Shown: positions 13,303 through 14,114, counted from the stretch's first letter. The stretch: DNA of 29,892 bases from Thermoplasmata archaeon (GCA_003651045.1 QMTJ01000001.1:1-29892), one strand, 5' to 3'. Made by a program: numbers and translations. Notes: a model not told the origin generated them from the sequence alone.

Positions 13303-13581
13303 ATGGGAAAGATTAAAACAATTGAGAAAAAGAATGACAATGTTATCACTGCTTCTGAAATAGGGCAGTTTTGTTATTGTTCAATGTCCTGGTATCTACA
13401 AAGACAGGGGTATAAACCAAGATCTGAATCAATCAACATGGGCTGGGAGAAACATATAGAACTTGGTGATTTAATGGATTCTACACAAAAAAATATCAAA
13501 AAATCAAAAATATTTGGTAGTGCTGGGTATATTTTACTAATTATAGCGTTTTTAATCTTACTATTTGAGGTGATTTTATAG
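13303..13581 (+). CDS. Cas4-like nuclease, N-terminal fragment with C-terminal transmembrane anchor
   Basis: ITASEIGQFCYC..WYL (first Fe-S Cys) and GWEKH (G-x3-H motif I), then KNIKKSK and a hydrophobic tail ending FEVIL. Confidence 0.8.
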   Translation: MGKIKTIEKKNDNVITASEIGQFCYCSMSWYLQRQGYKPRSESINMGWEKHIELGDLMDSTQKNIKKSKIFGSAGYILLIIAFLILLFEVIL

Positions 13582-13592
13582 AAGTAGAAAAC

Positions 13593-14114
13593 ATGATATT
13601 ATTTGTTATATTTTTTACGTTGTCAATAATGTTTATTTTGATATCGAAATCTATGCAGAGACGTGTTAGAAAAATGAAAAATAACCATGGAATTGTAAAA
13701 GGAGAGATAATATATACTGATTTGAATAAACCTGCGAAATCTTTTTTTTCAAAAAAATATAGGATCACTGGTAAACCTGATTATATAGTAGTAAAAGATG
13801 AAAAATGTTTACCTGTGGAGTTAAAAACCGGTGGTTATACTAAGCCACAGTGGAATCATATACTCCAGTTAGCAGCATATTGTCAATTGTTAGAGGAAAA
13901 CTATGGAGGTTTTGTACCTTATGGTATTCTTGTATACAATAATCGGTTTCAATACAAAATACCGTTTAACCCAAGGGTTAGATTTGAACTTGAGAATACA
14001 ATAAATGAAATGAGACATTTAATTAAAACAGGTGAAATTTATGTTAACCATGATGATCCAGGTAGATGTAAAAATTGTTCAATGAGAGAATATTGTAATG
14101 TGAGTATATCATAA
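13593..14114 (+). CDS. cas4: Cas4-like (RecB/PD-(D/E)XK, Fe-S) nuclease, C-terminal fragment with N-terminal transmembrane anchor; solo, not CRISPR-linked in this window
   Basis: GKPD (motif II), VELK (motif III), QLAAY (QxxxY) and C-terminal CKNC-x5-C. The N-terminal hydrophobic helix is followed by KSMQRRVRKMK. Confidence 0.88.
   Translation: MILFVIFFTLSIMFILISKSMQRRVRKMKNNHGIVKGEIIYTDLNKPAKSFFSKKYRITGKPDYIVVKDEKCLPVELKTGGYTKPQWNHILQLAAYCQLLEENYGGFVPYGILVYNNRFQYKIPFNPRVRFELENTINEMRHLIKTGEIYVNHDDPGRCKNCSMREYCNVSIS

Follow-up and report, generated by a model that had tools for sequence, protein, structure and literature searches.

The 29,892-nt stretch of DNA analysed here (hereafter, the window), which comes from a Thermoplasmata archaeon of the phylum Thermoplasmatota (GCA_003651045.1, QMTJ01000001.1:1-29892), contains two short consecutive genes, ORF1 and ORF2, that carry between them the characteristic residues of a Cas4-family nuclease. 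Each of the two also encodes a hydrophobic segment resembling a transmembrane (TM) helix. An earlier reading of this DNA (the original prediction) had described the pair as a split, doubly membrane-anchored, solo Cas4-like nuclease. Counting positions from the first letter of the window, the parts of the pair are as follows, with the evidence for each in brackets (aa, amino acids).

13303-13581, plus strand: ORF1, the N-terminal half, 92 aa; Cas4 N-terminal segment and then a C-terminal membrane anchor (sequence and homologues)
13378-13380, plus strand: Cys26, predicted first ligand of a [4Fe-4S] cluster (conservation; alignment with the Cas4 structures 8d3l and 4r5q)
13441-13455, plus strand: G47-x3-H51 motif, whose His is the equivalent of the Cas4 metal-ligand His (conservation; alignment with 8d3l and 4r5q)
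13510-13578, plus strand: TM1, I70-L92, 23 hydrophobic residues that end ORF1 and leave almost no extracellular tail (sequence; aligns with TM1 of unsplit relatives)
13567-13574, plus strand: GAGGTGAT, Shine-Dalgarno sequence for ORF2 inside the last codons of ORF1 (comparison of junctions)
13578-13580, plus strand: ATA codon over the TAG stop of ORF1; in most relatives ORF2 probably has its coupled start here (comparison of junctions)
13593-14114, plus strand: ORF2, the C-terminal half, 173 aa from the ATG; membrane anchor, PD-(D/E)XK core and three Cys
13596-13646, plus strand: TM2, I2-S18, and then the basic patch KSMQRRVRKMK (sequence; helix 2-31 of the AlphaFold2 model)
13770-13880, plus strand: catalytic core with GKPD (D63), ELK (E76, K78) and QLAAY (Q92, Y96) (invariant columns; alignment with 4r5q and 4ic1)
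14067-14096, plus strand: C159-x2-C162-x5-C168, the three C-terminal cluster ligands (invariant)

ORF2 is read in the -1 frame relative to ORF1, and 11 nt separate the TAG of ORF1 from the ATG of ORF2. All four cysteines of the Cas4 cluster are present and are divided over two polypeptides, Cys26 in ORF1 and C159, C162 and C168 in ORF2. Instead of the single soluble polypeptide of a Cas4 protein, the locus has two ORFs in different frames with a TM-like helix in each. The contents that had been attributed to ORF1 (the first cysteine of the iron-sulphur (Fe-S) cluster, GxxxH and a C-terminal TM helix) and to ORF2 (an N-terminal TM helix, the D/ExK/QxxxY core and CxxCx5C) were all found where the original prediction had placed them. 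It had put the first cluster cysteine in the string QFCYC, which contains two: Cys26 is invariant and suits the assignment, and Cys24, the other cysteine of CYC, is not conserved.

Profile searches related both halves to Cas4. ORF2 matched PF01930 (Cas_Cas4) over profile positions 21-159 (51.2 bits against a cut-off of 22.7, E 2e-13) and the NCBIfam cas4 model TIGR00372 over positions 63-179 (73.5 against 65 bits). ORF1, too short on its own to reach such scores, had no match in Pfam or NCBIfam; in the Cas4 model of PADLOC it covers positions 4-53 (E 0.0055), and ORF2 covers positions 30-159 of the same model. No PADLOC models were matched beyond Cas4 and DruK-type nuclease domains. When a profile of ORF1 was compared with the PDB, the best matches were the N-termini of the Cas4 proteins 8d3l (E 0.059) and 4r5q (E 0.17), weak but colinear, and the Cys and GxxxH of the profile were aligned with their counterparts in both structures. 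The residues in question are highly conserved. Among 87 cluster representatives of ORF1-like proteins, Cys26 and G47 are invariant and H51 is at least 90% conserved; in a set of 125 such representatives, the [YF]C cysteine occurs in 120 and GxxxH in 122. The alignment of ORF2 homologues showed D63, E76, K78, Q92, Y96, C159, C162 and C168 to be invariant, and GxPD, ExK, QxxxY and CxxCx5C are all kept in the 120 ORF2 homologues among the matches listed. The claim that every catalytic and cluster residue has been retained is thus borne out by invariant or near-invariant columns in both ORFs. In the Cas4 protein SSO0001, His62 is a ligand of the catalytic metal (PMC13621843). Since this equivalent of His51 binds metal, both the cluster and the active site would span the two chains.

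Structural comparison also led to Cas4. A profile of the unsplit form of the protein matched the Cas4 structures 4r5q (2e-6) and 4ic1 (2.5e-4) in the PDB, with the D, ExK, QxxxY and Cys triad aligned. AlphaFold2, supplied with an alignment of 52 sequences, modelled an unsplit homologue with two TM helices at a mean predicted local distance difference test score (pLDDT) of 92 and a predicted template modelling score (pTM) of 0.83; in this model, long helices at residues 29-81 and 87-122 make a hairpin. The top matches of the model in Foldseek were Cas4 SSO0001, the Dna2 nuclease domain, type I-C and type I-G Cas4, ACE1 and MGME1. ORF2 of the window, modelled by AlphaFold2 on its own (pLDDT 88.7), consists of a helix at residues 2-31 and then the nuclease core. 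Its first PDB match is type I-C Cas4, type I-G Cas4 is also at the top, and comparison with the I-G protein 7mi4 gave a query TM-score of 0.61 and a root mean square deviation of 3.1 Å. Cas4 structures therefore top the Foldseek lists of both the unsplit homologue and ORF2, in keeping with a Cas4/RecB-nuclease fold.

Colinearity with unsplit relatives is the strongest evidence that the two chains would rebuild one Cas4 fold. In sister families of the same class, weak matches to ORF1 lie inside single frames of 264-340 aa. Each such frame encodes a complete Cas4-like protein whose GxxxH helix is separated from the catalytic core by two or four hydrophobic helices. Searching 1.8 billion representatives with the ORF1 profile yielded 348 clusters, mostly stand-alone proteins of 80-110 aa. 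A few of these clusters are unsplit 2-TM proteins of 265-300 aa with a far closer resemblance to ORF1 of the window, and one is a soluble 198-aa form without the hairpin. Residues 1-96 of one unsplit protein, P0261, align with ORF1 (46% identity) and residues 97-266 with ORF2 (40%), so that the break between the ORFs falls in its TM1-TM2 loop. This colinearity of the pair with close unsplit relatives is new.

The window pair belongs to a larger family of membrane-embedded Cas4 relatives that extends through the phylum, and forms one of its branches. A homologue was found in 177 of 251 sampled genomes of the phylum, and at exactly the split site these proteins have 0, 2, 4 or 6-8 predicted TM helices, as counted by hydropathy, which gives even numbers where it is clean and odd ones for some proteins. 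Splitting also occurs in Cuniculiplasma, in a genome that keeps an unsplit 4-TM paralogue as well and in a high-GC lineage. A split 2-TM copy and an unsplit 4-TM copy (loci L134 and L135) coexist in genome G376, which suggests two paralogous lineages of the membrane-embedded family. A quick tree needed three changes of split state, and a single clade of all split forms was not rejected by the approximately unbiased test (p 0.68-0.70). Two soluble relatives of 198-207 aa without the TM hairpin, L124 (genome G215) and P0326, group beside the split clade in the tree, so more than one gain or loss of the hairpin is implied.

The two-gene form is fixed across the whole family to which the window belongs and recurs elsewhere, and this too is new. 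We took a census of ORF1 in 197 genomes of the window's class, including 107 of its family, where all relatives are uncultured metagenome-assembled genomes (MAGs). ORF1 is present in 96 of the 107 family genomes as a short open frame of its own, mostly of 85-140 aa, and ORF2 comes directly after it in every one of the 47 distinct junctions examined, which were drawn from independent assemblies. A search with ORF2 returned 473 homologues, 145-203 aa long among the matches listed; the few with a name come from Thermoplasmatales-type MAGs and are annotated either as Cas4 or as hypothetical protein. Two of the homologues lie on long contigs; there, a homologue of ORF1 (92-97 aa) immediately precedes the gene, the same divergent release-factor gene is present, and the spacing varies, with 47 nt between the ORFs in one and an overlap of 19 nt in the other. 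The unsplit protein P0261 was matched in 28 of 29 sampled family genomes, mostly as two pieces. For the closest pairs, the ratio of nonsynonymous to synonymous substitutions (dN/dS, Nei-Gojobori) was 0.16-0.33 in ORF1 and 0.07-0.33 in ORF2; both halves are under purifying selection. The original prediction had named halves that fail to co-occur, and decay with dN/dS near 1, as findings that would speak against it, and had asked for the same architecture to be sought more widely; the halves proved to be adjacent, no decay was seen and the architecture recurs, as described.

These data also dispose of the notion that the pair is a Cas4 pseudogene, recently frameshifted and in decay, or that the assembly is wrong at a run of T. 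One extra base in that run would indeed fuse both frames, but the same split is found in 47 distinct junctions of independent assemblies, the catalytic and cluster residues are all kept and dN/dS is well below 1. On the strength of this conservation, the intact motifs and the low dN/dS, we excluded a pseudogene or an assembly error, whose probability we regard as negligible.

The junction between the two genes has a conserved organization. ORF2 is in the -1 frame in 44 of the 47 junctions, and in 39 the GGTG of a Shine-Dalgarno sequence of the GAGGTGAT type lies within the last codons of ORF1. In 37 of these 39 the GGTG stands exactly 5 nt ahead of the stop-overlapping codon, that is, the codon made up of the last sense base of ORF1 and the first two bases of its stop. 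With a TGA stop, the overlapping codon is ATG, GTG or TTG in eight junctions and CTG in two; with TAG or TAA, it is ATA in 31 of 34 (31 of all 47). The last sense codon of ORF1 varies (TTA, CTA, ATA, ACA) while its final A persists. Many relatives have no ATG, GTG or TTG ahead of TM2, and the N-terminal TM helix is kept in only 57 of 120 database entries for ORF2 homologues (P0001-P0120). This suggests that gene callers start ORF2 too late, picking a later ATG or TTG, and that the true start is likely the stop-overlapping ATA. From the comparison of junction sequences we concluded that ORF2 is probably made by termination-coupled initiation, mostly at AUA. In the window, translation of ORF2 would begin at ATA 13578 or at ATG 13593, five codons later, and either start retains TM2. 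When the window's own genome was scanned for AUA starts after GAGGTGA, most sites turned out to be intragenic, and its assembly contains no 16S rRNA 3′ end with the anti-Shine-Dalgarno sequence. The conserved coupled junction is a new observation.

An alternative is that the split is only apparent: with GAGGTGAT and the stop codon as aids, a programmed -1 frameshift near T_TTA_TAG would join the frames and give a single Cas4-like chain with two TM helices, like the unsplit relatives. Such a frameshift would account for the -1 frame of ORF2 in 44 of 47 junctions, for an ORF2 frame that opens about 10 nt ahead of the ORF1 stop and for the many relatives that lack a canonical start ahead of TM2. 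However, the junction offers neither a conserved slippery heptamer nor a downstream stimulatory structure: no X_XXY_YYZ heptamer is present, and the RNA fold downstream is not stable (z = -0.60) and has no Rfam match. T_TTA itself varies (A_TTA, G_TTA, C_TTA, T_CTA, T_ATA), the conserved part being the A required for ATA. In eight junctions the codon over TGA is ATG, GTG or TTG, and others have an in-frame stop and then ATG, or a +1 arrangement (Cuniculiplasma). Finally, a Shine-Dalgarno sequence 3-5 nt from the site suits initiation and not -1 slippage. We therefore consider a frameshift less likely than termination-coupled initiation at ORF2 and, taken by itself, unlikely.

Two separate products are indicated by those lineages in which the overlap is a canonical ATGA, GTGA or TTGA, or in which an in-frame stop is followed within one or two codons by ATG. 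In three loci, L012 (genome G027), L122 (G041) and L123 (G044), the halves are in the same frame with one stop codon between them; the stop is followed by ATT in L012 and, one or two codons on, by ATG in L122 and L123. The junction evolves quickly, and the two-gene state is kept.

We also considered how the two chains would be placed in the membrane. A strong C-terminal hydrophobic segment is present in 118 of the 125 ORF1-like representatives, with a median of four residues beyond it, and the median number of Lys plus Arg (K+R) is three before the helix and zero after it. On the other side of the junction, TM2 has a hydropathy of 2.1-3.7 (Kyte-Doolittle) in 46 of the 47 junctions. In unsplit forms, median K+R is four in the 15 residues before TM1, one in the loop of about seven residues and four after TM2. 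Had the hydrophobic segments not been TM-like in homologues, the proposed architecture would have failed; their retention and the charge pattern agree with TM helices, and the 4/1/4 distribution supports the earlier argument that basic patches place both soluble halves in the cytoplasm. Fe-S proteins mature in the cytoplasm. Because of the positive-inside rule and this site of maturation, the soluble parts of ORF1 and ORF2 are both predicted to face the cytoplasm; ORF1 would then be tail-anchored and ORF2 a signal-anchor protein with its N-terminus outside. As far as sequence can tell, ORF1 has the features of a tail-anchored protein, namely one TM helix at its very C-terminal end, a predicted cytosolic domain ahead of it and no signal peptide.

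Overall, we consider it likely that ORF1 and ORF2 are the two halves of one membrane-anchored PD-(D/E)XK [4Fe-4S] nuclease of the Cas4 family. According to this model, a two-helix membrane hairpin would have been inserted in an ancestor between the GxxxH helix and the catalytic core, and the gene would then have been cut in the short outer loop of the hairpin. The tail-anchored ORF1 would contribute Cys26 and His51, and the N-terminally anchored ORF2 the Asp, Glu, Lys, QxxxY and three Cys. Pairing of TM1 with TM2 would form the enzyme at the inner membrane face, with a cluster and a metal site each built from two chains, so that neither half would be active alone. The two genes would be translated as a coupled pair, through the Shine-Dalgarno sequence in the last codons of ORF1 and a start of ORF2 over the ORF1 stop.

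ORF2 could instead be a self-sufficient, N-terminally anchored nuclease and ORF1 a separate small membrane protein, whether a regulator or a mere companion. ORF2 alone folds confidently in AlphaFold2 and passes the Cas4 cut-offs, and the Solo-Cas4 of Methanosarcina mazei is active without its cluster (PMC12501428). We nevertheless find a self-sufficient ORF2 quite improbable, because Cys26, G47 and H51 of ORF1 are invariant or nearly so in the 87 representatives, Cys26 and H51 align with the cluster Cys and the metal His of Cas4, ORF1 is colinear with the N-terminus of the unsplit relatives, and the halves were never apart in the loci examined.

The pair had been called solo on the grounds that no cas1, cas2 or array lay in the window. 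Within these 29.9 kb we likewise found no cas gene other than the pair and no CRISPR-like array; for the genome as a whole the description needs amending. Contig C111 of the same genome (G000) has Cas2 at its edge (L162:3-233) and, about 1 kb past it, a CRISPR-like array (L162:1306-1533) with a period of 66 nt and 3.5 copies, so the genome has a CRISPR-Cas system that has been cut by the assembly. In this genome (84% complete) the single Cas4 match is the gene studied here, and no Cas1 was found in the assembly. Across the family, Cas1 was above the cut-off in 10 of 108 genomes, against 96 of 107 for ORF1. CRISPR loci assemble poorly in MAGs, but the gap is large, and the gene pair is independent of the adaptation module: it neither stands beside cas1/cas2 nor occurs only alongside Cas1. 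It might be argued that the pair acts in trans in CRISPR adaptation, trimming prespacers as Cas4 does from DNA at its point of entry, and the Cas2 and array on C111 and a score of ORF2 above the cas4 equivalog cut-off would fit. Given how rarely Cas1 accompanies ORF1 in the family, and a housekeeping neighbourhood that is kept with no cas gene nearby, we judge action in trans to be very improbable.

The rest of the window is of a housekeeping nature, with genes of the saccharopine pathway, a release-factor paralogue of baeRF family 10, ABCE1, folate enzymes and RPA-like proteins. The features next to the pair are listed here.

12065-13138, minus strand: baeRF family 10/eRF1-like protein of 357 aa with a C-terminal zinc ribbon, divergent from ORF1
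14152-14160, plus strand: run of nine T, 38 nt past the ORF2 stop, a possible archaeal terminator of the two-gene transcript (judged from sequence only)
14270-14485, plus strand: ORF of 71 aa, no Pfam match; in 9 of 20 family loci a counterpart lies about 73 nt downstream of ORF2
14524-14733, minus strand: ORF of 69 aa, no Pfam match; a counterpart of 65-69 aa on the opposite strand occurs in 6 of 20 family loci

In the window's family the pair sits between the release-factor paralogue and ABCE1. Of 20 family loci, 12 have the baeRF cluster and 14 have ABCE1 (16419-18191 in the window) downstream; this link is lineage-specific and absent from other families. The pattern of the pair is that of a vertically inherited, stand-alone gene. 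In two families the 4-TM forms adjoin ribonucleotide reductase (a Ribonuc_red_lgC barrel with a TSCPD domain), and in two sister families the 2-TM forms adjoin genes for archaeal type IV pilin, T2SSE, T2SSF and PQQ/CARDB surface proteins. In the latter, unsplit families f5 and f6 (L029-L033 and L034-L053), type IV pilin genes adjoin the unsplit gene in 18 of 20 loci. Frequent neighbours there are T2SSE, T2SSF and a PQQ/CARDB surface protein, and the opposite flank has CDP-archaeol synthase and a 1400-aa SF1 helicase.

Regarding function, Cas4-family enzymes act on DNA ends. The enzyme might accordingly be an end-dependent nuclease acting on nucleic-acid ends that arrive at the inner membrane face, as incoming viral, plasmid or taken-up DNA, and the circular chromosome would be spared because it has no ends at the membrane. 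The type IV pilin, T2SSE and T2SSF genes beside the 2-TM forms of two sister families favour such a role, and a parallel is provided by SNIPE, a membrane-bound nuclease of E. coli that cuts phage DNA during injection (PMC13190303). End-dependent degradation or processing of entering nucleic acid is a tentative proposal for the cellular role, to which we give less than an even chance. Our best guess is defence by location or the handling of taken-up DNA; the enzyme may instead take part in membrane-proximal repair or act on an RNA substrate.

Several points weigh against the overall interpretation. Clustering of the neighbours of 79 loci from 24 families revealed no partner common across families, and a link to pilus genes is seen only in two families, which are related to each other. 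Vertical inheritance that is close to universal resembles the behaviour of a housekeeping gene more than that of a defence gene. One relative (L138:929-2884, plus strand; 652 aa, with seven TM helices by hydropathy and probably eight) has a C-terminal TRAM domain (E 1.3e-10). TRAM domains usually bind RNA, and the substrate could therefore be single-stranded nucleic acid or RNA. The ATA start is one that we infer from aligned junctions. Lastly, Cys mutants of the M. mazei Solo-Cas4 lose the cluster and keep their activity (PMC12501428), which implies that a shared cluster may be structural and not essential.

A bolder version of the proposal would make the pair an obligate heterodimer with a bridging cluster and metal site, in which a nuclease guarding points of DNA entry is switched on by assembly at the membrane, perhaps together with iron or redox state, and in which the AUA start sets the subunit ratio. 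We rate this version as rather unlikely; if true, it would be an archaeal, core-genome counterpart of location-based discrimination between self and non-self.

Cas4-family nucleases are regarded as soluble single-chain enzymes, and the role of many archaeal copies outside CRISPR is an open question. In full-text literature searches we came across no account of a Cas4 with a transmembrane or split architecture, and both of these words are absent from the Cas4 phylogenomics of Hudaiberdiev et al. 2017 (PMC5704561). A membrane-embedded branch that is near-universal and vertically inherited across the phylum suggests that the protein works at the membrane. The split form is a natural experiment in which an Fe-S cluster and an active site would need to be built across two polypeptides, and it makes assembly, cluster function and membrane dependence directly testable with the halves alone or together. 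The junction, in turn, is a clean candidate for conserved non-canonical AUA initiation coupled to termination, and an AUA start would explain why gene callers truncate ORF2. Since Cuniculiplasma, a genus with cultured members, has the split form, checks at the protein level are feasible.

Several known systems resemble the pair in part. SNIPE (PMC13190303) is an inner-membrane nuclease that illustrates how incoming and self DNA can be told apart by location alone, and its likeness to the pair is one of analogy: SNIPE is bacterial, a single protein, showed no sequence relation to the pair in any search run, and has an experimentally established role in defence, which for the pair is hypothetical. 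AddB, Dna2 and 5′ end-processing enzymes of the MGME1 type share the nuclease fold and appear among the structural matches, and the Fe-S cluster of AddB and Dna2 has the same topology as that of the pair; unlike the pair, however, all of these are soluble domains of helicase-nucleases or mitochondrial enzymes, and none is split or has an inter-chain cluster. The Cas4 proteins of CRISPR adaptation (SSO0001 4IC1, Pcal_0546 4R5Q, type I-C 8D3L and Cas4/Cas1 7MI4) are the best matches in sequence and structure. They have in common with the pair the fold, D/ExK/QxxxY, the His of GxxxH and one N-terminal plus three C-terminal Cys, but each is one soluble chain encoded beside cas1/cas2, whereas the window pair consists of two chains with a TM helix each. 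Archaeal solo-Cas4 genes (PMC5704561; M. mazei, PMC12501428) lie outside CRISPR loci, as the pair does; the proteins described are soluble, unlike the pair, and the M. mazei enzyme is a 318 kDa oligomer (PMC12501428). The closest systems are the unsplit membrane-embedded proteins of Thermoplasmatota with 2, 4 or 6-8 TM helices, direct homologues at 28-46% identity that have the same insertion site, catalytic residues and predicted topology. These are single chains, whereas the proteins of the window's family are cut between TM1 and TM2, at a junction with a conserved Shine-Dalgarno sequence and an overlapping start.

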